Shown piece after piece: positions 50,062 to 61,092 of a stretch of DNA of 64,000 nucleotides. The position numbers and the translations under genes were made by a program. The notes beneath the pieces were generated by a model. The model saw only the letters and a program-made list of their open reading frames with translations, had not been told where the DNA came from and did not search any database. The stretch's first letter is position 1. The number at the start of each line of letters is the position of its first letter. This DNA is from an uncultured Bacilli bacterium (GTDB lineage Bacteria; Bacillota_I; Bacilli_A; RF39; UBA660), in the NCBI GenBank assembly GCA_947591505.1, contig CANQDM010000001.1, positions 25,316-89,315 on the forward strand, read 5' to 3'.

Positions 50062-50787
50062 TTACATTAAATAGGTAATTATTAATATAACCATCCCTAT
50101 AATTATACCATAAATAACTTCTTTTTTCCTTAAATACTCCTTAATTTCATTAAATAATTCAAAAATTAAAATATACAAAAGCATACCAAAAGTAAGAGAT
50201 AAGAATATATTTGTTAGCATACTACTTAAATTACCAAATATTAATATTATTAATGCTCCGATTAGAGAACTAGAACATAAAAGCATAACTAATAAAATAT
50301 TATTTTTATTTTTTGATAAAGAATTTCCTATTTGAAATCCTAGTGGTATATTATGAAGAGCAATACTAATCATCATTAAAATACCAGATTTTAAATCATT
50401 TAAAGTAATGCTATATAAAGTTAATCCTTCAATCATGTTATGAATAGCCAAAGAAATTATGGTAATCATGCCAATATGTTGTAAATGCAAATTATGATCT
50501 TTTTTATCATCATTTATATCATGATGCTCATGATGATGATGGGGAATTAATATATCTAAAATTATTAAAAGAGCAAAACCTAATATAGCAAATAATAAAG
50601 TATAAATATTAAATTCATCTAATAATTCTGGTAATAAATCAAAAAATAATAAACCAATTAACACAATAAATGCTAAAGAGGTTGTAAATAAAGACATTTT
50701 TTCTTTATTTTTTACTTTTTCAAAGAAAATAATACCAATTAGAAAAAATAAGCCAATTAAAATTGTTAAAATTATGCCATATAACAT
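50062..50787 (-). CDS. ZIP-family metal (zinc) transporter
   Basis: His-rich loop HHHHEHHD and HNxxEG motifs (IHNMIEGL, LHNIPLGF), ~8 TM, 241 aa. Confidence 0.75.
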   Translation of the reverse strand: MLYGIILTILIGLFFLIGIIFFEKVKNKEKMSLFTTSLAFIVLIGLLFFDLLPELLDEFNIYTLLFAILGFALLIILDILIPHHHHEHHDINDDKKDHNLHLQHIGMITIISLAIHNMIEGLTLYSITLNDLKSGILMMISIALHNIPLGFQIGNSLSKNKNNILLVMLLCSSSLIGALIILIFGNLSSMLTNIFLSLTFGMLLYILIFELFNEIKEYLRKKEVIYGIIIGMVILIITYLM

Positions 50788-50910: not shown

Positions 50911-52059
50911 ATGAAAAAATTAGCGATTAAAGCTATTTCTGGTTTATTTTTAGCTACTGGAGTTGTTACTGCTGGTATTTATGGTATTTCTAAAATAGAT
51001 AATAAAAGTTTATCTTATGAAGTAAATAGTAAAGAGGCTTTAAAATATAATCAAAATAATATTGTTGAAAATAATTTAGAAACTGAAACAAAAAATAATG
51101 TTACTGAAACTAAAGCTGCAGAAGAAAAAGTAGAAACAGCAATTCAAGAATATGAAAAAGCAGTTGAAGCTAAAAAAGCTTGTGAAGAAGAATTAAAAAA
51201 TGTTACAAATGCTGAAGATAAAGCCAAATTTGAAGAAAAATTAAAAGTTTTAGAAGAAAAAGTTAAAAAAACTGAAACTGTAAAGAAAGAAGCAGAAAAA
51301 ACTTTAGAGGAAGTTAAAAATGTTGAAGAAACTGAAGAAGTAAAAGAAAATAATAGCAATAAGACTTCTAATAATACAACTACTATAGAAATTCCTAGTC
51401 AAAATACAAATGATTTAGAAACAGTTCAAACTGCCGTAGAAAAAACAATAAATGCTAAAAATATGACAGTTAATAACAATATTGAAAAATCAACTAGAAA
51501 ATTTGATAAAACAACAGGAAACGAATATGCTGAATATCGTAAAAGTTTTAGTATTACAGAAAAAGCTGGTACTCTATACTCATATAAAATGAATAGTACT
51601 AAAACTATTTCTTTATTTAAAGAAAGTGGTACTAGTGAATGGAAAATGGTATTTAGTGGTAAAAGATCTCTAGGAGTTATTGAATTAGAATTACTTAAAA
51701 ACATTAAAAGTGTAGAAAAAAATAATGATGTTTATAACGTAACTATTTCACACAAAAATGCTAAAACGTGGTTATCTACTTATTATGGAAAATCATTATC
51801 TAAAACTAATGATATAACTATAGCTGTTAAAATTAATAATGGTTATGTACAATCTATAGAAGGTAATGTTGATATTGAAATTGATTTAGATTTAAGCAAT
51901 ATCAATTCTACTAATATCCCAACTAGAAATAGTATTGGCATTGATGATAGTACAATCGAAGCATTAGAGACTGAATATCAAGCAAAGAAAGATTGTGAAC
52001 GTGAAAATGATTATTGGGTTTGTGGCCCTCATAAACATGTAAATCAATATAATTTCTAA
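50911..52059 (+). CDS. secreted coiled-coil protein (hypothetical), signal peptide
   Basis: RBS AAGGAGG. Signal peptide, K/E-rich heptad region, then a Ser/Thr/Asn-rich C-terminal half. Confidence 0.55.
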   Translation: MKKLAIKAISGLFLATGVVTAGIYGISKIDNKSLSYEVNSKEALKYNQNNIVENNLETETKNNVTETKAAEEKVETAIQEYEKAVEAKKACEEELKNVTNAEDKAKFEEKLKVLEEKVKKTETVKKEAEKTLEEVKNVEETEEVKENNSNKTSNNTTTIEIPSQNTNDLETVQTAVEKTINAKNMTVNNNIEKSTRKFDKTTGNEYAEYRKSFSITEKAGTLYSYKMNSTKTISLFKESGTSEWKMVFSGKRSLGVIELELLKNIKSVEKNNDVYNVTISHKNAKTWLSTYYGKSLSKTNDITIAVKINNGYVQSIEGNVDIEIDLDLSNINSTNIPTRNSIGIDDSTIEALETEYQAKKDCERENDYWVCGPHKHVNQYNF

Positions 52060-52109: not shown

Positions 52110-52850
52110 ATGGCCTATAAGGCCTGTTACTGGCTGCCACCATTTGGTGGCTTTTTTAGTCTGCCAATCGCCTTTGTCACTCTTACTTACCCGTAAACGG
52201 GTCTTTATATTCCTTCAGACTTCTCTTGTCTTGCAATCTGTCTTCTTCCTCTTGGTTTTGAATATATTTCTTTATTGTTGCTTTATTTAATCCTACTGTA
52301 CTCACATAATATCCTTCTGACCAAAAATGTCTATTTCCATAGTTGTATTTCAAATTTGCATGCTCTTCAAATATCATCAAACTACTTTTTCCCTTTAAAT
52401 ATCCCATAAATGATGATACACTTATTTTTGGTGGTATCTTCACCAACATGTGGATATGATCTGAACATGCATTTGCTTCGACTATCTCTACTCCTTTATA
52501 TTCACATAATCGTCTTAAATATCGTCCTATATCTCTCCTTAATTTTCCATATATTGCTTTTCTTCTATATTTTGGCGAAAATATGATATGATATGAACAA
52601 TTCCATTTTGTATGTGACAACGTACTTTCTTCATCATTTCTCCTCATCTTCATTAAAATATCACTCCTTCTGATTTTTGGCTTGGTTGGCAGACCTAAGT
52701 CTATTATATCAGAAGGAGTGATATTTTTTTCTCATCGCTATCGCTTCTTCATGTCTCACCCGCATAGCGGGTGGATTTATTCCACGACCTTTCTGGTCGT
52801 GGCAATTCTGATGAATTGCTTATTAAAAAAAGATGGCGCCAAACCATCTT
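52110..52850 (-). mobile_element. IS200/IS605-family element (TnpA only), approximate boundaries, with subterminal hairpins
   Basis: Y1 HUH transposase ORF plus flanking GC-rich hairpins (GCCACC-ATTT-GGTGGC at 52136-52151, CCACGACC-TTTC-TGGTCGTGG at 52785-52805, CACCCGC-ATAGC-GGGTGG). No IR/TSD is expected for this family. Confidence 0.55.
52183..52653 (-). CDS. tnpA: IS200/IS605 family transposase TnpA (HUH Y1)
   Basis: 156 aa; HIHMLVKIPPK (HxH) and SEGYYVSTVG (catalytic Tyr region). Confidence 0.9.
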   Translation of the reverse strand: MKMRRNDEESTLSHTKWNCSYHIIFSPKYRRKAIYGKLRRDIGRYLRRLCEYKGVEIVEANACSDHIHMLVKIPPKISVSSFMGYLKGKSSLMIFEEHANLKYNYGNRHFWSEGYYVSTVGLNKATIKKYIQNQEEEDRLQDKRSLKEYKDPFTGK

Positions 52851-52851
52851 T
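52825..52851 (-). terminator. bidirectional hairpin terminator (AAAGATGG-loop-CCATCTTT flanked by A/T runs) directly after the stop of the giant repeat protein gene
   Basis: Inverted repeat with U-tracts on both strands. Confidence 0.5.
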
Positions 52852-55518
52852 TTATTTACTTCTAATGCATCCTTTGGATTGAAATATAAGTTCTCCTTCT
52901 ACTCTTTTATTAACATTATTTATTTGGTCATAATCACGATAATTTCTAAATATTAATGATATATCCCAACGGTGTTCAGACATAGTATTTGTAGATGCAT
53001 CATTAGAAATTGTAACTTCACCAATTTTATAATCTTTTCCTTTAATATTTACTAAATCAATATTATAAGGTTGTAAATTATTCGTATCACTACTACCTTC
53101 TAATCTTAATATAAGTTGTTCATTTAAATCATATAATTTACCATTCTTAGTATATTTATTTGTAAAGGTATTCTTTTGAGTTTTAAAGATAATATCATAG
53201 GTACATGTTGTAATATCCTCATAAGATTTCAAATAAACAGTCGAATATGCTTTATCACTTGAAATTTCTATATAATTAGCCATACTTGCTGAAGGTTTAT
53301 GCATTTGCTCAGCAGTAACAGATAAGTTAATATCTTTAGGCTCCATTATTGTAAATAATGCATTTGGTTCATCATCTTCATCATCACAATATTTATCGCA
53401 TATACCATCACCATTAGTATCACAGTACTTATCACATTTATCGTCATCATTATTATCACAGTTTAAATCGCACTTACCATCTTTATTGGTATCACAGTTT
53501 AAATCACATTTGCCATCTTTATTGGTGTCACAATTTAAATCACATTTGTCATCTTTATTGGTATCACAGTTTAAGTCACATTTTCCATCTTTATCGGTAT
53601 CACAGTTTAAGTCACATTTACCATCTTTGTCATTATCACAATTGTAATCGCATTTGCCATCTTTATTGGTATCGCAATTTAAATCACATTTGCCATCTTT
53701 ATTGGTGTCACAATTTAAATCACATTTGCCATCTTTATCATTATCACAATTATAATCACATACATGGTCTTTATTTATATCACAATTGTAATCACATCGG
53801 CCATCTTTATCATTATCACAGTTGTAATCACATTTATCATCACCATCGGTATCACAATTCCAATCGCATTTACTGTCCTTATCGGTATCACAATTATAAT
53901 CGCATTTTCCATCTTTATTAGAATCACAATTTAAATCGCATTTTCCATCCCTATTGGTATCACAGTTTAAATCGCATTTTCCATCACCATCGGTATCACA
54001 ATTAATTGGACAAGTAAATTCACAATAGGTGTCACATTTTCCATCACCATCATCATCACAGAACAAATCACAAACTTTATCATTATTCGTGTCACAATTT
54101 AAATCACATTTACCATCTTTATCGGTATCACAATTTAAATCACATTTATTATCGCCATTTGTATCAATATTTAAATCAGGATCTTTATCACCATCGACAT
54201 CTATATTAATGTCAGGGTATCCATCTTTATCAATATCACAATTTAAGTCGCATTTTCCATCACCATCGGTATCTTGATTCATTGGATTTCGATCAGGATT
54301 ACCATCCGTTTCAGCCTCTACATCTGGTTTTTTATCACGGTTAGTATCAATTTCAATATTCTCTTCAACATGAGTATCACAATTGACATCACATTTACCA
54401 TCTTTATCAATATCAAGGTTAGTATCTGGTACACCATTACCATCGGTATCAATATTTAAATCAGGTTTCATATTATCATTAGTATCAATATTAACATCTG
54501 GTTTACCATCACCATTAATATCAACATTAACATCTGGATAGCCATCTTTATTAACATCACAGTTTAAATCGCATTTTCCATCGTTATCTAAATCTTGATT
54601 AGTTGAATTTTGATTTGGCTTACCATCAGTTTCAGCTTCAATATCTGGATCTTTATCTCGATCAGTATCAACCCACATATTTTTTTCAACATGAGTATCA
54701 CAATTGATATCGCATTTTCCATCTTTATCAAAATCTATATTAGTATCTGGTACACCATTACCATCAGTATCAATATTTATATCTGGTTTCTTGTTATCGT
54801 TAGTATCAATATTAACATCTGGTTTACCATCACCATCTATATCGATATTATAATCTGGATAATGGTCATCATTAATATCACAGTTTAAATCGCATTTACC
54901 ATCGTTATCTAAATCTTGATTAAGTAAATTTCGATCTGGATGATTATCAGTTTCGGCATCCACATCAGGATCTTTATCGCCATCAGTATCAATTGGTGTT
55001 TTTTTATCAACATCATCATCAATATTTATATCGGGTTCATTATCACCATTTATATCGATATTGACGTCTGGTTTACCATCGCCATCGGTATCAATGTTTA
55101 AATCTGGCATTTCATTATCATTTGCATCAATATTTATATCTGGTTTACCATCACCATCTAAATCAATATTATAATCTGGATGATTATCACCATCAACATC
55201 ACAATTTAAATCACACTTACCATCGCCATCTAAATCTTGATTAATAAAGTTTTTATCTGGTTTACCATCGTTATCTACATCAATATTAAAAAATGCTTTA
55301 TTTTTAATATTACCATAAGTAATATTAATGTCTGGTAAACCATCACCATCGGTATCACGATTTAACAAAACATTACCGCTACCACCAAAATTACTACCGC
55401 CAAAAAATTCAAGAGTAAAAGTAGTAATAATTAAAATCAAACACAAAATCATTATAATCATCATTATAACTAGTGCCATTAATTTTTTCTTCTTTAATTC
55501 ATCATCTTGAACAAACAT
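52852..55518 (-). CDS. 888-aa secreted/anchored Asp-rich calcium-binding repeat protein: thrombospondin type-3-like repeats, then ~25 Cys-containing 12-residue repeats (CDxNCDxxKDGK), then a unique ~200-aa C-terminal domain
   Basis: Start reassigned to the ATG at 55518 (RBS AGGGGG 9 nt upstream). The ORF-track start at 55596 would overlap the upstream gene. N-terminal TM LMALVIMMIIMILCLILIITTF. First half repeats DxDGDGKPDxNID. Second half is near-perfect CDLNCDTNKDGK units. Confidence 0.8.
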   Translation of the reverse strand: MFVQDDELKKKKLMALVIMMIIMILCLILIITTFTLEFFGGSNFGGSGNVLLNRDTDGDGLPDINITYGNIKNKAFFNIDVDNDGKPDKNFINQDLDGDGKCDLNCDVDGDNHPDYNIDLDGDGKPDINIDANDNEMPDLNIDTDGDGKPDVNIDINGDNEPDINIDDDVDKKTPIDTDGDKDPDVDAETDNHPDRNLLNQDLDNDGKCDLNCDINDDHYPDYNIDIDGDGKPDVNIDTNDNKKPDINIDTDGNGVPDTNIDFDKDGKCDINCDTHVEKNMWVDTDRDKDPDIEAETDGKPNQNSTNQDLDNDGKCDLNCDVNKDGYPDVNVDINGDGKPDVNIDTNDNMKPDLNIDTDGNGVPDTNLDIDKDGKCDVNCDTHVEENIEIDTNRDKKPDVEAETDGNPDRNPMNQDTDGDGKCDLNCDIDKDGYPDINIDVDGDKDPDLNIDTNGDNKCDLNCDTDKDGKCDLNCDTNNDKVCDLFCDDDGDGKCDTYCEFTCPINCDTDGDGKCDLNCDTNRDGKCDLNCDSNKDGKCDYNCDTDKDSKCDWNCDTDGDDKCDYNCDNDKDGRCDYNCDINKDHVCDYNCDNDKDGKCDLNCDTNKDGKCDLNCDTNKDGKCDYNCDNDKDGKCDLNCDTDKDGKCDLNCDTNKDDKCDLNCDTNKDGKCDLNCDTNKDGKCDLNCDNNDDDKCDKYCDTNGDGICDKYCDDEDDEPNALFTIMEPKDINLSVTAEQMHKPSASMANYIEISSDKAYSTVYLKSYEDITTCTYDIIFKTQKNTFTNKYTKNGKLYDLNEQLILRLEGSSDTNNLQPYNIDLVNIKGKDYKIGEVTISNDASTNTMSEHRWDISLIFRNYRDYDQINNVNKRVEGELIFQSKGCIRSK
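53390..54100. repeat. tandem 36-bp coding repeat array (near-identical units, e.g. gtcacaatttaaatcacatttgccatctttattggt), part of a larger degenerate repeat region extending to ~55300
   Basis: Many consecutive 36-bp units with 0-4 mismatches are visible directly in the sequence between ~53440 and ~53800. Confidence 0.8.
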
Positions 55519-55531
55519 AAAACACTGCCCC

Positions 55532-56245
55532 CTAACCTTCATTATTAATTTGAATTTGTTGCTCATTTTGACCTTCAACAGGCATACTTTGAACATTCAA
55601 TTTCAAATACATTAACTTTCCTATTTCCGTTGCTGGTGTGGTATCAGCTAACCAAACATAAACTTTTAAGACTCTTGTTGTAGGCTCAGTTCCTGATTCA
55701 TTTATTGTTGCTTTATTTATTCGACTTTTTAAAATAGGATAAACATCTTGCCCACTAGAAACAAATTGCGTAATTTTCATATTATATGCTGGCTCTCCTG
55801 TTTCATCAGGATTTAAATTTAACCATCCTGAATTATCTAGGCTTTCTTCATAAATGCCAATGATTAAATTATCAAAAGAAACTAATCCTACATCTTTACT
55901 TTCGGGAGGAATATTATCTTCATCATAACTTATTGAAACAATAAAATTAGCATCTATATTGCCATTATTGGAAATAGTTAACGTAGCACAATCTTTTTCC
56001 TCATTATTTAAAATAGATTCAGGGGATGTTGGTAATGTTTCTTCTGTAGGGAAAACTTCAGTCTTGGCCATTGATGTAGCAGATGCTGAAACATTTAAAG
56101 TTCCTGTTGATATTGCTTGAACTGTTGACTTTGATTCAATCGAAAAAAATGCTGAATATGAGTAACTCAACGAAATAATTGTAAGTACGAGAACAGATAA
56201 TATAATAAATTTTGTATTACGTTTTACCTTTTTATCCGACTTCAC
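55532..56245 (-). CDS. TasA/CalY/camelysin-family protein (peptidase M73-like) with SipW-cognate-type signal peptide
   Basis: GTG start with RBS AAGGTGA. The N-terminus KFIILSVLVLTIISLSYSYSAFFSIESKSTVQAISTGTLNV matches the TasA-type pattern (h-region, AFF(S/N)D, xSGTLxL). 237 aa. Confidence 0.65.
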   Translation of the reverse strand: MKSDKKVKRNTKFIILSVLVLTIISLSYSYSAFFSIESKSTVQAISTGTLNVSASATSMAKTEVFPTEETLPTSPESILNNEEKDCATLTISNNGNIDANFIVSISYDEDNIPPESKDVGLVSFDNLIIGIYEESLDNSGWLNLNPDETGEPAYNMKITQFVSSGQDVYPILKSRINKATINESGTEPTTRVLKVYVWLADTTPATEIGKLMYLKLNVQSMPVEGQNEQQIQINNEG

Positions 56246-56375: not shown

Positions 56376-58184
56376 ATGGAAATTAGAAATGTTGCAATTA
56401 TTGCCCATGTTGACCATGGTAAAACGGCATTAGTTGATGAAATATTAAAATATGTTGGTACATTTAGAGAAAATCAAGATGCTGCTAATTTTTCAATGGA
56501 TTCTAATCAAATTGAAAAGGAACGTGGTATCACTATTTTAGCTAAAACCACATCTATTATATATAATAATGTTAAGATTAATATCTTGGATACCCCAGGA
56601 CATGCTGACTTTGGCGGCGAAGTTGAGCGTATTATGAAAATGGTTGATGGTGTTATTCTTGTTGTTGATGCTTATGAAGGGCCAATGCCTCAAACAAGAT
56701 TTGTGTTAAAGAAAGCTATTGAAGCCGGCGTTAAACCTATTGTTGTTATTAATAAAGTTGATAAACCAACAGCAAGAATTAAAGATGTTAATGATGAAGT
56801 ATTAGGATTATTCCTAGATTTAGGTGCTTCAGATGAACAATTAGATTTCAAAGTTGCTTATGCATCAGCTCTAAATGGTACATCAAGTTTAGATCCAGAT
56901 ATTAATACGCAAGAAAAATCATTTAAATGTATTCTTGATTTAATAGTAAATGAAATAAAAGCTCCAGAAGGTGATGTTAATAAAGCATTCCAATTTCAAC
57001 CAGCTCTTTTAGATTACAATGATTATGTTGGTCGTATTGCCATAGGTCGCATTTTCAATGGTAAAGTTAAAGTTGGCCAAATGGTTAACTGTTTAAGACT
57101 TGATGGCACAGAAAAACAATTTAGAGTCCAAAAATTATTTGGGTTTACTGCTCTATCTAAAGTTGAAGTTGAAGAAGTTACTGCAGGTGATATTTGTGCT
57201 ATTGCGGGTCTTGAAGATATTTCTGTTGGTGAAACTTTAACAGAAGTTGGCAATCATGAAAGACTTCCTATAATTCATATTGATGAGCCAACCTTGCAAA
57301 TGACTTTTGGGGTAAATACTTCCCCATTCTCTGGTAATGATGGTAAACTTCTTACATCAAGAAAAATTGAAGAAAGACTAATGAAAGAAACACAAAAAGA
57401 TGTTTCCTTAAAAGTTGAACAATTAGATTCGGAAAATTTCTTAGTATCTGGTCGTGGTGAGCTTCATCTATCTATATTAATTGAAAATATGCGCAGGGAA
57501 GGATTTGAATTACAAGTATCTAAACCTAAAGTTATTTTAAAAGAAATTGATGGTAAAATTTGTGAACCATATGAAGAATTACAAATTGAAGTTGATGATG
57601 AATATATGGGCGGCGTTATTGAAGAATTAAGCTCTCGTGGTGCTGTAATGAATGATATGAATCATATAGGTTCTCTAACTAGAATTAATTACACTATTCC
57701 ATCTCGTGGTTTAATTGGTTTTGCGACTAACTTTATGACTCTTACTAAAGGATATGGTATTATGAATCATACTTTTAAAGAATATGGTCCAAAAGCTAGT
57801 GTTGAACTTGGCGAAAGAAAATTAGGTGTTCTTGTATCTAGTGAAACTGGTAAATCAACTGCCTATGGTATTGGTCAACTTGAAGATCGTGGTGTTATGT
57901 TTATTGAACCAAATACTGAAGTTTATGAAGGCATGATTGTTGGTGAATGTAATCGTGATAATGACCTTGCAATCAATGTTGTTAAAGGTAAAGAGCTTAC
58001 TAATACCAGAGCTGCTTTCTCTGATAAAACTGTTGTCTTAAAAAGACCTAGACCTATTACCCTAGAATATGCGCTAGATTATATTAACCAAGATGAACTA
58101 GTTGAAGTTACTCCAAACTTTATAAGACTTAGAAAAGTTATACTTAATACTGAACTTAGAAAAAAAGCTGATGCTAAAAAATAG
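56376..58184 (+). CDS. typA: translational GTPase TypA/BipA
   Basis: [38 protein letters not shown] and NKVDKP G-motifs; 602 aa. Confidence 0.95.
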
Positions 58185-58208: not shown

Positions 58209-59258
58209 TTATACCACTGGATCTTGAATTTGATTATTTCCTAGTTTATTAGTCTCCTTTATATTAATAAGTTCAGATTTCTCAAAAATAGATGCAATAG
58301 AATCTTCATCAATATTATATAAACTATTTTGAAATGTAAATTCATATAAATGATTTAGTAATAACTTTTCGGGCGTTTTAATCATAACTGTTTTTTTATC
58401 TGTTTGATATAAAGACAATGTAACATAATAAATATTTTCTTCTTCGCCTTGCATTAAATCTTCCACCATATAAGTTTTAGTAAAACTTTTCTTATTAGAA
58501 ATATTACCACATACACCATTATTATAAGATTTTGAAGTTGCCATATCATTTGGACCGATATAGATATCATTATTATCATCTAAAGTATGGCATTTAATAA
58601 TAGTTATTTCATTATTACGATACTCAGTTGTGCCACCGTCCCACAAAACGTATTTATTAACATTATTCATTTTGCTAATTATTTTATCTAAACCATCATC
58701 AATGTTCTTACCGGATTTTTTAATATAATTTTTTAAATTTATATTATCATTAATAGATAAATCATCTAAACAATAATAATAAATTGTTTTATCTTTACTT
58801 GTATAATATTTAGTAATTTTCCCCGTACAATTTGGTGTTATTTTAGTATTAAAATGTACTTTGTCGTTATAAAGTTTAATATTTTTTCCATAATAATAAC
58901 CACCTAAAAATAATAAAGTTAAAATAATAGAAATACCAATAATAATTATTATAATACTTAATATTTTTTGCTTTGTTTCATATTTTTTAAATAAACCAAA
59001 TATATTAAAAAAGTTCTCTTCGGCATTTTTCGAATAATCTTTATTTTTTATCTTTTCACCACTTAATAATTCATTAACGTTAATATCTAATATTTCACAA
59101 ATTGGTTTTAAAAGTGCCATATCCATAAGACATATCCCTCGTTCCCATTTTGATACAGCATTTATACTTACACCAAGTTTATTTGAAAGATCTTCTTGAG
59201 TTAATTTTTTATCTTTACGACATTCTGAAATAAATTTACCAATACGCTCTTGATTCAT
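58209..59258 (-). CDS. XRE-family HTH transcriptional regulator with a single TM helix and extracytoplasmic C-terminal domain
   Basis: HTH LTQEDLSNKLGVSINAVSKWERG, TM ILSIIIIIIGISIILTLLFLGG, ~200-aa C-terminal domain. Confidence 0.7.
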   Translation of the reverse strand: MNQERIGKFISECRKDKKLTQEDLSNKLGVSINAVSKWERGICLMDMALLKPICEILDINVNELLSGEKIKNKDYSKNAEENFFNIFGLFKKYETKQKILSIIIIIIGISIILTLLFLGGYYYGKNIKLYNDKVHFNTKITPNCTGKITKYYTSKDKTIYYYCLDDLSINDNINLKNYIKKSGKNIDDGLDKIISKMNNVNKYVLWDGGTTEYRNNEITIIKCHTLDDNNDIYIGPNDMATSKSYNNGVCGNISNKKSFTKTYMVEDLMQGEEENIYYVTLSLYQTDKKTVMIKTPEKLLLNHLYEFTFQNSLYNIDEDSIASIFEKSELINIKETNKLGNNQIQDPVV

Positions 59259-59354: not shown

Positions 59355-59431
59355 TGGTAACCCGTACGGGGTTCGAACCCGTGAATGCTGCGCTGAGAAC
59401 GCAGTGTGTTAAGCCACTTCACCAACGGGCT
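59355..59431 (-). tRNA. tRNA-Glu, anticodon CUC
   Basis: Minus-strand sequence AGCCCGTTGGTGAAGTGGCTTAACACACTGCGTTCTCAGCGCAGCATTCACGGGTTCGAACCCCGTACGGGTTACCA. The 7-bp acceptor includes G2-U71. T-arm ACGGG/TTCGAAC/CCCGT. Anticodon stem CTGCG/CGCAG with loop TTCTCAG, so anticodon CTC. The acceptor and T-arm closely resemble Bacillus tRNA-Glu. A CCA end is encoded. Confidence 0.75.
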
Positions 59432-59831: not shown

Positions 59832-61092
59832 GGCAATCGCATAAAAAAATAATGTAAAATTATGGTACAATTACTTTTTATAATAAAAAAAATCATGTAT
59901 TCTTATAATAGGGACGGTGTAAGAATATATGAAATCATTAATTAATCATTTTGAAATATTAGAAGATCCAAGAGATATAAGAGGAAAAAAACATAATTTA
60001 GCAAATATATTAGTAATGACTGTATATGGTATTTTATGTGGATATACAGATTTTGAAAATATGGCTGATTTTTTAGAAGTCCATGAAGATTATTTTACTA
60101 ATCTTTTATCATTAGAAAATGGTATTCCATCTCATGATACTTTTTCTAGAGTCTTTTCTCTAATTGATAGTAAAAATTTTTTGAATATATTTATTGATTG
60201 GATAAAAGAAATTGTAGATAAAAACGGACAACATTTATGTATTGATGGTAAAGCAATAAAAAGTGCTAGAGATGCCATAAATGGTGGTAATACTCCTTAT
60301 ATAGTTTCAGGTTTTCTTGCTGATATAGGTATATCTATTGGTCAAGTTAAAGTAAATGATAAATCTAATGAAATTACTGCTATACCTGATTTAATTAATC
60401 TTTTAGATATTGAAGGTAAAATTATTACAATTGATGCCATCGGTACTCAAGAAGATATTTGCAATTTAATTACTAGTAAAGATAAAAAAGGAGATTATAT
60501 TTTAAAAGTTAAAGATAATCAAAAAGACTTAAAAGATGATATTAAAACTTATTTCGATTTAGGACTTAAAAGAGATGATACTGATATTATTATTTGGGAT
60601 ACTGATTATGAAAAAGATCATGGAAGAATAGAAAAAAGAATGTATTATCTATCATATAATATTGATTGTATAACTGACAAAAATAAATGGAAATCTGTAA
60701 AAGCAATTGGTAGAATTGATGTTTATCGTGAAGAAAATGGACAAGTTAAAACAACAAAACATTATTATATTTTAAGTAATACATTTGATATTAATACATT
60801 CATAAAAACATCTAGAGAACATTGGAATATAGAATGTTCCTTACATTGGCGATTAGATGTAATTATGGATGAAGATCATTCTAGGAATAGAATTGGATAT
60901 TCTATCGATAATTTATCTTTAATTCGTAAAATTGTCTTTAATCTTGCTAGACTTGATAATTCTATGGGAAAACTTACATTAAAGAAAAAAATGACTCGAT
61001 ATATAAGCGATTTCAATAATATTGAAAATCTTATATTCAATGTCATTCCTTCTTTGTAATTCTACTTTACGTTAAATTTTTATGCGATTGCC
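59832..61092 (+). mobile_element. ISAs1-family insertion sequence (~1261 bp) with 16-bp perfect terminal inverted repeats GGCAATCGCATAAAAA
   Basis: Left 59832-59847 ggcaatcgcataaaaa; right 61077-61092 tttttatgcgattgcc (exact reverse complement). One transposase ORF. Confidence 0.7.
59929..61059 (+). CDS. ISAs1-family transposase (H-repeat-associated protein-like)
   Basis: The N-terminus FEILEDPRDIRGKKHNLANILVMTVYGILCG matches the ISAs1 signature DPR..RGK.H.L.DIL; 376 aa; DDE-like blocks. Confidence 0.75.
   Translation: MKSLINHFEILEDPRDIRGKKHNLANILVMTVYGILCGYTDFENMADFLEVHEDYFTNLLSLENGIPSHDTFSRVFSLIDSKNFLNIFIDWIKEIVDKNGQHLCIDGKAIKSARDAINGGNTPYIVSGFLADIGISIGQVKVNDKSNEITAIPDLINLLDIEGKIITIDAIGTQEDICNLITSKDKKGDYILKVKDNQKDLKDDIKTYFDLGLKRDDTDIIIWDTDYEKDHGRIEKRMYYLSYNIDCITDKNKWKSVKAIGRIDVYREENGQVKTTKHYYILSNTFDINTFIKTSREHWNIECSLHWRLDVIMDEDHSRNRIGYSIDNLSLIRKIVFNLARLDNSMGKLTLKKKMTRYISDFNNIENLIFNVIPSL

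Follow-up and report, generated by a model that had tools for sequence, protein, structure and literature searches.

A two-gene locus of uncultured gut Bacilli may encode a divergent TasA-superfamily surface fiber with a repeat-stalked membrane base

We followed up a two-gene locus in a window of 64 kb from an uncultured gut Bacilli bacterium (assembly GCA_947591505.1, contig CANQDM010000001.1, positions 25,316–89,315 of the forward strand); by window we mean this whole stretch. The window is very AT-rich (∼20%–31% GC). The two genes, here called gene A and gene B, lie in that order on the minus strand between bipA/typA and an IS200 element. Our comparisons support gene A as a divergent TasA-superfamily subunit, with a jelly-roll core and a TasA-type N-terminal region, at the level of a distant relationship only. 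We see an even chance that A and B together specify a divergent TasA-superfamily surface fiber in which B, a protein with a long repeat stalk, is the membrane-tethered base. A sequence-only reading had drawn attention to the locus; the features it described, a two-gene minus-strand arrangement with a transmembrane (TM) anchor, repeats and an IS200 element on the 3' side, were all confirmed from the sequence.

Gene A has 23 close homologs, none of which is annotated or carries a Pfam domain, and a profile search of 1.84 billion representatives recovered 257 relatives. In the small protein A the hydrophobic segment is followed by ...SYSYS-AFFSIESKSTVQAISTGTLNV, and all close homologs share this layout: a hydrophobic segment, an S-Y-S-A-F-F block and then ..STGTLxV. 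The SYSAFFS block (A residues 29–35), which straddles the junction of signal and arm, is 97% identical across 22 homologs, and S29, Y30, S31, A32, F33, and F34 are invariant. Identity is 64% in the TM segment versus 51% in the core, with the arm at 61%. An AlphaFold model built on the homolog alignment is an all-beta sandwich with a predicted local distance difference test (pLDDT) score of 76.8, and residues 25–46 are left unplaced in this monomer (pLDDT <50). Searched with Foldseek, the model returned 8aur_A as its sole match at E ≤ 1e-3; the TasA fiber was the top structural match by two methods, at an identity of only 12%–13% in the structural alignments. The jelly-roll/beta-sandwich core of A is thus closest to TasA-type subunits.

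Profile comparison with hhalign gave a related picture. Using an extended A family of 125 sequences, the alignment to TasA (whose sequence we checked against 8aur_A) reached E = 4.1e-4 over 71 columns, with a probability of only 35%; the profile of 23 sequences found the correct region without significance (E = 0.22). The larger alignment takes in the signal junction together with the GTLxV and NNGSL strands. With an arrow marking the cleavage site, it sets SYS↓AFFSIESKS on TWA↓AFNDIKSKD, GTLxV on GTLDL, and I-x-N-x-G-x-[LI] on FENNGSL, and arm residues 32–52 of A fall on TasA residues 28–47, donor strand included. Mature TasA begins with AFNDIK (PMC10151520), and the segment aligned to the arm of A is the donor strand by which the TasA N-terminus enters the following subunit (PMC9674648). 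By this alignment the cleavage site of A would be SYS↓AFF, and the invariant N-terminal arm, together with its low pLDDT in the monomer, suggests that A may polymerize by donor-strand exchange.

The curated models fall just short of the family. Two distant A-family members score below the cut-off of Peptidase_M73 (PF12389; P0137 at 21.5 and P0141 at 17.6 bits, cut-off 22.5), and P0141 scores 15.6 bits against TIGR04088 (cut-off 19). Gene A itself had no Peptidase_M73 match even at E ≤ 1, its profile found nothing among Protein Data Bank (PDB) sequences, and TIGR04088 did not match the N-terminus of either A or B at E ≤ 10. The earlier proposal that A is TasA/camelysin-like thus holds as a distant profile link and fails as a Peptidase_M73 membership, and the SipW-cognate class proposed for its signal was not borne out by TIGR04088. 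The accompanying term "amyloid-type" fiber is outdated: native TasA fibers are donor-strand-exchange polymers of folded subunits (PMC9674648).

Gene B starts at a site that coincides with the conserved MFVQ(D/E)DELKKKK start of its homologs. AlphaFold2 places a helix at residues 3–41 (pLDDT 85–88). The hydrophobic segment within it is ∼19–22 residues long, and the TM segment is better conserved than the core (60% versus 44% identity, 21 homologs). The TFT[LF][ED]xFG motif that follows is 56% conserved, and the arm after the motif only 28%, versus 61% for the arm of A. At the other end of the protein, from about residue 750, the model folds as an all-beta jelly-roll, most of it at pLDDT 71–85. 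This C-terminal domain had been called unique; we found it to be homologous to small proteins with TasA-type signals. Its profile matches two ORFs of one related locus, L028, that start with a TM segment and TFAYFTA (E = 1.9e-8 and 8.7e-6), and two B-type paralogs of L028 come close to the TIGR04088 cut-off (16.9–17.0 bits against 19). Once the stalk is excised, B proteins are collinear end to end with the ∼210-aa L028 ORFs: the TM segment, TFT[LF][ED]xFG on TFAYFTA, a short xLNV strand, the core, both Cys residues, and a Q..N.GK..G...C tail. In the stalk-less relatives of B, a TFAYFTA-type signal leads through a short arm into a jelly-roll that has a single conserved pair of Cys. The C-terminal homology and the collinearity together indicate that B is a subunit-like protein whose N-terminal arm and core have been separated by an insertion of repeats. 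A combined B profile also aligned to the A-family profile (E = 2e-4, 96 columns). We therefore describe gene B as a TM segment and motif, a repeat stalk of ∼660 aa, and a C-terminal jelly-roll, that is, as a second TasA-like subunit.

The L028 locus (GCA_964404455.1, 8001–12197) is itself a five-gene cluster at the syntenic site, upstream of ZIP-epimerase-patatin-YebC. An A-family gene of 375 aa, extended by a CarboxypepD_reg domain, is followed there by four stalk-less B-type ORFs that start with a hydrophobic segment and TFAYFTA, TYAYFAA, or TFAYFFA. The cluster resembles the A–B system expanded to several subunits, with the A-family protein that carries CarboxypepD_reg a candidate tip adhesin. 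We also considered a type IV pilin identity and rejected it: a prepilin motif (G↓F(T/S)LxE) is missing, and the N-termini consist of KKKK, a hydrophobic segment, and the motif.

A homolog search with the C-terminal domain of B alone found nothing, and a 20-sequence profile of this domain retrieved just four proteins from the protein collection, all short or truncated. The 888-aa B of the window is absent from that collection by exact match, and C-terminal-domain searches recovered no full-length B from metagenome-assembled genomes (MAGs). Word-indexed searches therefore under-count the family.

The stalk of B is built on a 12-residue unit, D1-x-[DN]3-x-D5-G6-x-[P/C]8-D9-x-N11-[IV/C]12, in a protein that is 23.1% Asp, 12.6% Asn, and 6.6% Cys (59 Cys). 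Tandem Repeats Finder reports a 36-nt period along with 72-, 108-, and 321-nt periods, the last (321 nt × 3.6) scoring 1186. Both unit types noticed in the sequence-only reading are present, at higher counts than its ∼12 and ∼25: we counted 20 Pro-type ([DN]x[DNA]x[DN]xxPDxx[IVL...]) and 27 Cys-type ([DN]x[DN]x[DN]xxCDxxC) units. The stalk holds 28 exact Dx[DN]xDG motifs at spacings that are multiples of 12, compared with 1.8 ± 1.3 (maximum 7) in 1000 shuffles that preserve composition. In 20 distal units (residues 464–711), D1, D5, C8, D9, and C12 are invariant and the codons differ synonymously (TGT/TGC, GGA/GGC/GGT); invariant residues despite synonymous variation indicate purifying selection on old copies and not recent duplication. 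Counting CxxxC without regard to register, 884 of 893 stalk Cys in 21 homologs have a partner at ±4, and most of the nine unpaired ones sit at the cut edges of the region analyzed. It follows that Cys8 and Cys12 jointly replace Pro8 and Ile/Val12, the only two hydrophobic positions of the unit, which argues that positions 8 and 12 touch.

At least 12 unrelated folds use Dx[DN]xDG to bind Ca2+ in a common manner (PMC3123361), and at the motif level the stalk falls in this class, with an added downstream acidic ligand (D9, invariant in the distal units). EF-hand Pfam models gave no membership on stalk fragments (EF-hand_1 at E = 8 on one fragment), and position 12 of the unit, which is Ile, Val, or Cys, departs from a canonical EF-hand. 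FG-GAP Ca-loop matches on the fragments were weak and below membership. Pfam returned no match to full-length A or B, and in NCBIfam the sole matches of B were the Ser-Asp (SD)-repeat parts of ClfA, ClfB, SdrC, and SdrD, at 107–121 bits against cut-offs of 999–2500. We discarded these MSCRAMM matches, together with those to PilJ_C, HYDIN, and FG-GAP, as compositional or weak, all being below cut-off. The head-to-tail 12-residue Dx[DN]xDG/CxxxC array is an undescribed repeat type.

Related A–B loci were found in uncultured Bacilli MAGs from the guts of rabbit, goat, and other hosts. In these, B varies from 668 to 1599 aa and its ends are constant; judged from these sequences, the stalk is a spacer of variable length. 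Short-read assemblies also contain apparently complete B forms of 251 and 314 aa, with the same context and ends, which may be assembly collapses. Stalk Cys are absent in four lineages, and the other lineages have 9–53 CxxxC pairs. Three loci (L013:873–3422, L020:10644–13889, and L022:7770–10781) have a Gly-rich stalk unit of 18 residues, CDxNCDDGSxGGxxxDGx, with up to 105 Cys; these stalks keep the CDxNCD core and have mostly lost the Dx[DN]xDG loop (2–16 motifs). One MAG, Lapin-011__bin94, carries two diverged A–B pairs (L007 and L021), whose A copies share 79% and 31% identity with A of the window.

Several features of the locus suggest that A and B form one transcription unit. The intergenic gap measures 13 nt (not 14, as first given, although the adjacency stands) and contains a GGGGG ribosome-binding site. 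B lies directly 3' of A in every related locus recovered, and a hairpin and T-run equivalent to the terminator of the window follow B in ∼15 of 17 related loci. The co-transcription proposed earlier is plausible on these grounds, and the predicted terminator is read as the end of a bicistronic A–B operon. The gene that follows in most related loci, 50–150 nt from B, encodes a ZIP-family transporter; it is separated from B by the terminator and carries a separate TGnTAnAAT −10 element at almost every locus. The hairpin and T-run after B and this extended −10 element argue that the operon is bicistronic and that adjacency to ZIP reflects conserved gene order. Coordinates are summarized in Table 1.

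Table 1. Features of the A–B locus and its neighbors (window coordinates)
Feature	Position	Strand	Description
ZIP-family metal transporter	50062–50787	minus	His-rich loop
382-aa protein gene	50911–52059	plus	Convergent to gene B
IS200/IS605-type Y1 transposase (PF01797)	52183–52653		156 aa; Y1_Tnp E 2.2e-40, 138 bits, full-length match
IS200 element, complete	52183–52800		GC-rich hairpin at 52756–52774
Intrinsic terminator	52827–52853	minus	AAAAAGATGG-loop-CCATCTTTTT + T-run; overlaps gene B stop codon
Gene B	52852–55518	minus	888 aa; ATG at 55518; large ORF spans 52852–55596
Gene B residues 715–888	52855–53376	minus	174-aa all-beta jelly-roll; invariant Cys 772 and 884; F-R-N-Y motif
Gene B residues 452–714, distal stalk	53377–54165	minus	Cys-type 12-mer array (D-T-[ND]-K-D-G-K-C-D-[LY]-N-C)
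Gene B residues 55–451, proximal stalk	54166–55356	minus	∼3.6 copies of a 107-aa super-repeat: Pro-type 12-mers (DxDGDGKPDxNI) and single interspersed Cys-type units
Gene B residues 32–40	55399–55425	minus	TTFTLEFFG; consensus [ST]-F-T-[FL]-[EDN]-x-F-G; TFAYFTA counterpart in stalk-less B-type paralogs
Gene B residues 13–31	55426–55482	minus	TM or signal-anchor helix after KKKK
Gene A	55532–56245	minus	237 aa; GTG start, AAGGTG 5' of start
Gene A residues 32–52	56090–56152	minus	AFFSIESKSTVQAISTGTLNV; putative N-terminal donor-strand arm
Gene A residues 14–31	56153–56206	minus	Hydrophobic signal/TM segment ending SYS
bipA/typA	56376–58184	plus	
349-aa protein gene	58209–59258	minus	Just beyond bipA; N-terminal XRE-type helix-turn-helix
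tRNA-Glu(CTC)	59355–59431	minus	
ISAs1-like DDE transposase	59929–61059	plus	DDE_Tnp_1_assoc + DDE_Tnp_1

In the fiber that we propose, A would be exported and cut at SYS↓AFF to give the polymerizing subunit, whose arm (AFFS...STGTLNV) would act, like that of TasA, as the donor strand entering the jelly-roll of the subunit that follows. B would keep its N-terminal TM helix, its stalk would cross the wall, and its C-terminal jelly-roll would take the donor strand of an A subunit, a role equivalent to that of TafF in haloarchaeal tafi or of the SLH or LPXTG anchors in AbpX loci. Anchor and tip subunits have precedent in TasA-superfamily loci (PMC11821415; bioRxiv 10.64898/2026.01.04.697558). We favor B as the membrane-tethered base because of this precedent, because its TM segment is more conserved than its core, and because its arm is poorly conserved. 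Each 12-mer would probably bind one Ca2+ through D1, D/N3, D5, and D9, such that the stalk would lack order while calcium is absent and, once outside the cell, extend into an acidic rod. Cys8 and Cys12 might act as a staple within the unit, either as a disulfide or, in the anoxic gut, as a thiolate metal site.

A more elaborate form of this model, which we regard as improbable, takes the donor arm and the acceptor core of B to be split by a calcium-gated, Cys-stapled stalk of tunable length (∼2 to >100 units). If B were processed, B–B or A–B strand exchange would give a polymer or network resembling "beads on an elastic string" and not a rigid fiber. Such an arrangement, if true, would be a new donor-strand-exchange matrix architecture, whose stiffness would depend on Ca2+ outside the cell and on the redox or metal state, and it would be assembled via a general, unlinked signal peptidase.

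Several observations weigh against the fiber reading. Most characterized TasA-superfamily loci encode a signal peptidase. None of the ORFs in the 64-kb window carries a type-I signal peptidase motif (GxSMxP / SGSM / GDSM), and a SipW search by phmmer and motif over the ORFs of the window and of loci L001–L024, with flanks of up to 10 kb, found none; the neighborhoods of two distant family members (P0137 and P0055) likewise contained no signal peptidase. Neither A nor B scored above the cut-off of any TasA/camelysin or SipW-signal model in Pfam and NCBIfam. The sequence links to TasA are single comparisons near 1e-4 and are modest, significance being reached only with the widened A family and after the stalk-less B paralogs were added; the A/B alignment lies partly in hydrophobic TM segments, the direct comparison of the A1 and A2 profiles was not significant, and neither was that of the B profile with TasA. 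For the stalk, the AlphaFold2 model of full-length B has a pLDDT of ∼30, with no helices predicted and no confident fold, and by that model the stalk could simply be disordered. Disulfides in a strict gut anaerobe are doubtful, and the repeat counts, read from MAGs assembled with short reads, may reflect collapsed arrays.

The N-terminus of B also bears on whether the protein stays in the membrane. The same fiber could be built with B cleaved like A and acting as initiator or tip instead of anchor: once released, its N-terminal segment (FTLEFFG...) would provide the complementing strand for the first A subunit, the part played by TapA in TasA fibers and by TafC in tafi, and the stalk and C-terminal jelly-roll would dangle distally as an adhesin or link fibers. 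The near-threshold SipW-type signals of the stalk-less relatives would make a cleaved subunit the ancestral state, the conservation of TFT[LF][ED]xFG at the outer end of the TM segment suggests a recognition site, and the first donor strand does come from TapA or TafC in their own systems (PMC9674648, PMC10151520, PMC11821415). We nonetheless hold a cleaved B to be unlikely, if still a serious contender. The arm after its motif lacks the conservation of the A arm, its long and conserved hydrophobic segment is more like a stable TM anchor, its N-terminus falls outside TIGR04088 even at the permissive threshold, and cleavage would leave the fiber of a two-gene module with no identifiable cell tether. 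Quite unlikely, in our judgment, is that there is no fiber at all and that A and B are separate surface proteins sharing an operon, with B a membrane-anchored adhesin that presents a ligand-binding jelly-roll on an acidic spacer, like the Ser-Asp stalk of staphylococcal MSCRAMM proteins, and A a monomeric beta-sandwich partner at the cell surface. That the sole NCBIfam matches of B are SD-repeat stalks, that stalks differ greatly in length, a trait of SD-repeat proteins too, and that no dedicated peptidase is linked all speak for it. The MSCRAMM scores are, however, far under their cut-offs and reflect Asp-rich composition only. A simple anchor would also leave unexplained the 97%-conserved SYSAFFS block and the alignment of A to the cleavage site and donor strand of TasA; the TasA fiber is the specific top structural match for A by two methods, and the core of B is homologous to small proteins with TasA-type signals in a multi-paralog cluster typical of pilus loci.

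Two other readings concern the stalk. It might be a device for metal capture or buffering, a surface "metallothionein" for Zn2+, Fe2+, or Cd2+ coupled to the downstream ZIP importer. In most related loci the next gene on the strand of B encodes that importer, which is likewise found after the L028 cluster; B offers 27 CxxxC pairs and ∼200 acidic residues, and the reducing gut lumen favors free thiolates. This we find very improbable: the terminator and the promoter element described above separate ZIP from the operon; synteny continues through epimerase, patatin, YebC, and TyrRS, such that the adjacency looks like conserved gene order; the module is kept in the four lineages without stalk Cys; and in the window an IS200 element and a convergent gene lie between B and ZIP. 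The last reading, that the repeats are true homologs of eukaryotic or bacterial thrombospondin type-3 repeats and form an acquired or inherited TSP3 "calcium wire," we consider scarcely credible, despite the common D-x-D-x-D-G-x-x-D core and the paired Cys. TSP_3 and bacterial TSP3 Pfam models had no match on full-length B (E ≤ 1) or on four stalk fragments (E ≤ 10), and phmmer searches of the fragments against all PDB chain sequences, thrombospondins included, returned nothing relevant. TSP3 has 13- and 23-residue motifs and disulfides between repeats, whereas the period here is strictly 12 residues and the CxxxC lies within the unit; the Cys-free lineages, moreover, show the ancestral unit without Cys. 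The thrombospondin type-3 identity assigned in the sequence-only reading is thus reduced to a resemblance of sequence motifs (Dx[DN]xDG).

The fiber reading, with B as its base, can be set beside several known systems. TasA/TapA/SipW of B. subtilis and CalY/camelysin of B. cereus resemble A in the jelly-roll, the signal junction, the register of the arm, and the N-x-G-x-[LI] strand, and the TasA system likewise pairs a major subunit with one accessory protein that has a related N-terminal motif. The A–B module differs in lacking a sipW gene, both in the operon and within ±10 kb (neither sipW nor tapA occurs in the window, as was noted earlier), in not reaching the curated hidden Markov models, and in its host, an uncultured gut Bacilli lineage of ∼24% GC; its accessory protein B, unlike TapA, is a second type of jelly-roll subunit with a ∼660-aa stalk of Ca-motifs. 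Haloarchaeal tafi consist of a TafC tip, a TafE adapter, a TafA shaft, and a TafF membrane anchor (PMC11821415), and AbpX loci have SLH or LPXTG anchors (bioRxiv 10.64898/2026.01.04.697558); members of the AbpX clade have been suggested to be acidic and responsive to Ca2+ (PMC11821415; bioRxiv 10.64898/2026.01.04.697558). These systems share with A–B a shaft subunit and a homologous subunit with a membrane or wall tether. They usually encode signal peptidase I and several accessory genes, whereas A–B is a minimal two-gene module, and no Tat motif was evident in the A–B N-termini that we read. TafF has a C-terminal TM segment adjoining its acceptor domain; in B the TM segment is N-terminal, and a stalk of up to ∼1400 residues precedes the acceptor domain.

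For the stalk, the nearest likenesses are the Dx[DN]xDG loops of EF-hand, integrin FG-GAP, dockerin, and TSP3, whose motif B shares at a 12-residue spacing. In B, however, the loops run head to tail without a flanking helix or strand, and position 12 of an EF-hand is Glu or Asp. The Ser-Asp stalks of MSCRAMM proteins are comparable as long, acidic, length-variable repeats that hold a beta-sandwich off the cell, but they are dipeptide repeats with a C-terminal LPXTG, whereas B has structured-looking 12-mers and an N-terminal TM segment; with scores ∼10-fold under the cut-offs, the two are not homologous.

The remaining neighbors give the locus its setting. The complete IS200 element, with its GC-rich hairpin, sits between the gene B terminator and the convergent 382-aa gene. 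A homolog of the latter directly follows B in the closest relatives (L007 and L009), indicating that IS200 is a recent insertion that left the operon intact. The 382-aa protein has an N-terminal signal or TM segment, a Lys/Glu-rich coiled coil, and a C-terminal domain, with no Pfam match; its gene is present, in convergent orientation to B, only in these closest relatives (87% identity in L007, 82% in L009), and L017 has a weak partial match (30% identity over ∼200 residues). The ZIP transporter with its His-rich loop, encoded beyond this gene in the window, lies on the same strand after A–B in most relatives, at 17 related loci. On the other side of the operon, just beyond bipA, the 349-aa protein with the XRE-type helix-turn-helix has one TM segment and an extracellular domain, and is of the membrane-bound regulator type; it is absent from this position in L001, L002, and L004. 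The ISAs1-like transposase gene, beside tRNA-Glu(CTC), marks a second mobile element within 8 kb of the operon.

Donor-strand-exchange fibers of the TasA type are a recently recognized cross-domain route to biofilm scaffolds and pili. The locus would extend the TasA superfamily to uncultured, AT-rich gut Bacilli that curated models do not see, in the form of a two-gene module that is minimal in having no linked signal peptidase. The coupled switch from Pro8/Ile12 to Cys8/Cys12 marks contacting positions in the repeat unit and is useful for the study or design of Ca2+-responsive rods. Moreover, a subunit split by a stalk of variable length provides a testable model for how a fiber may be tethered through the Gram-positive wall.

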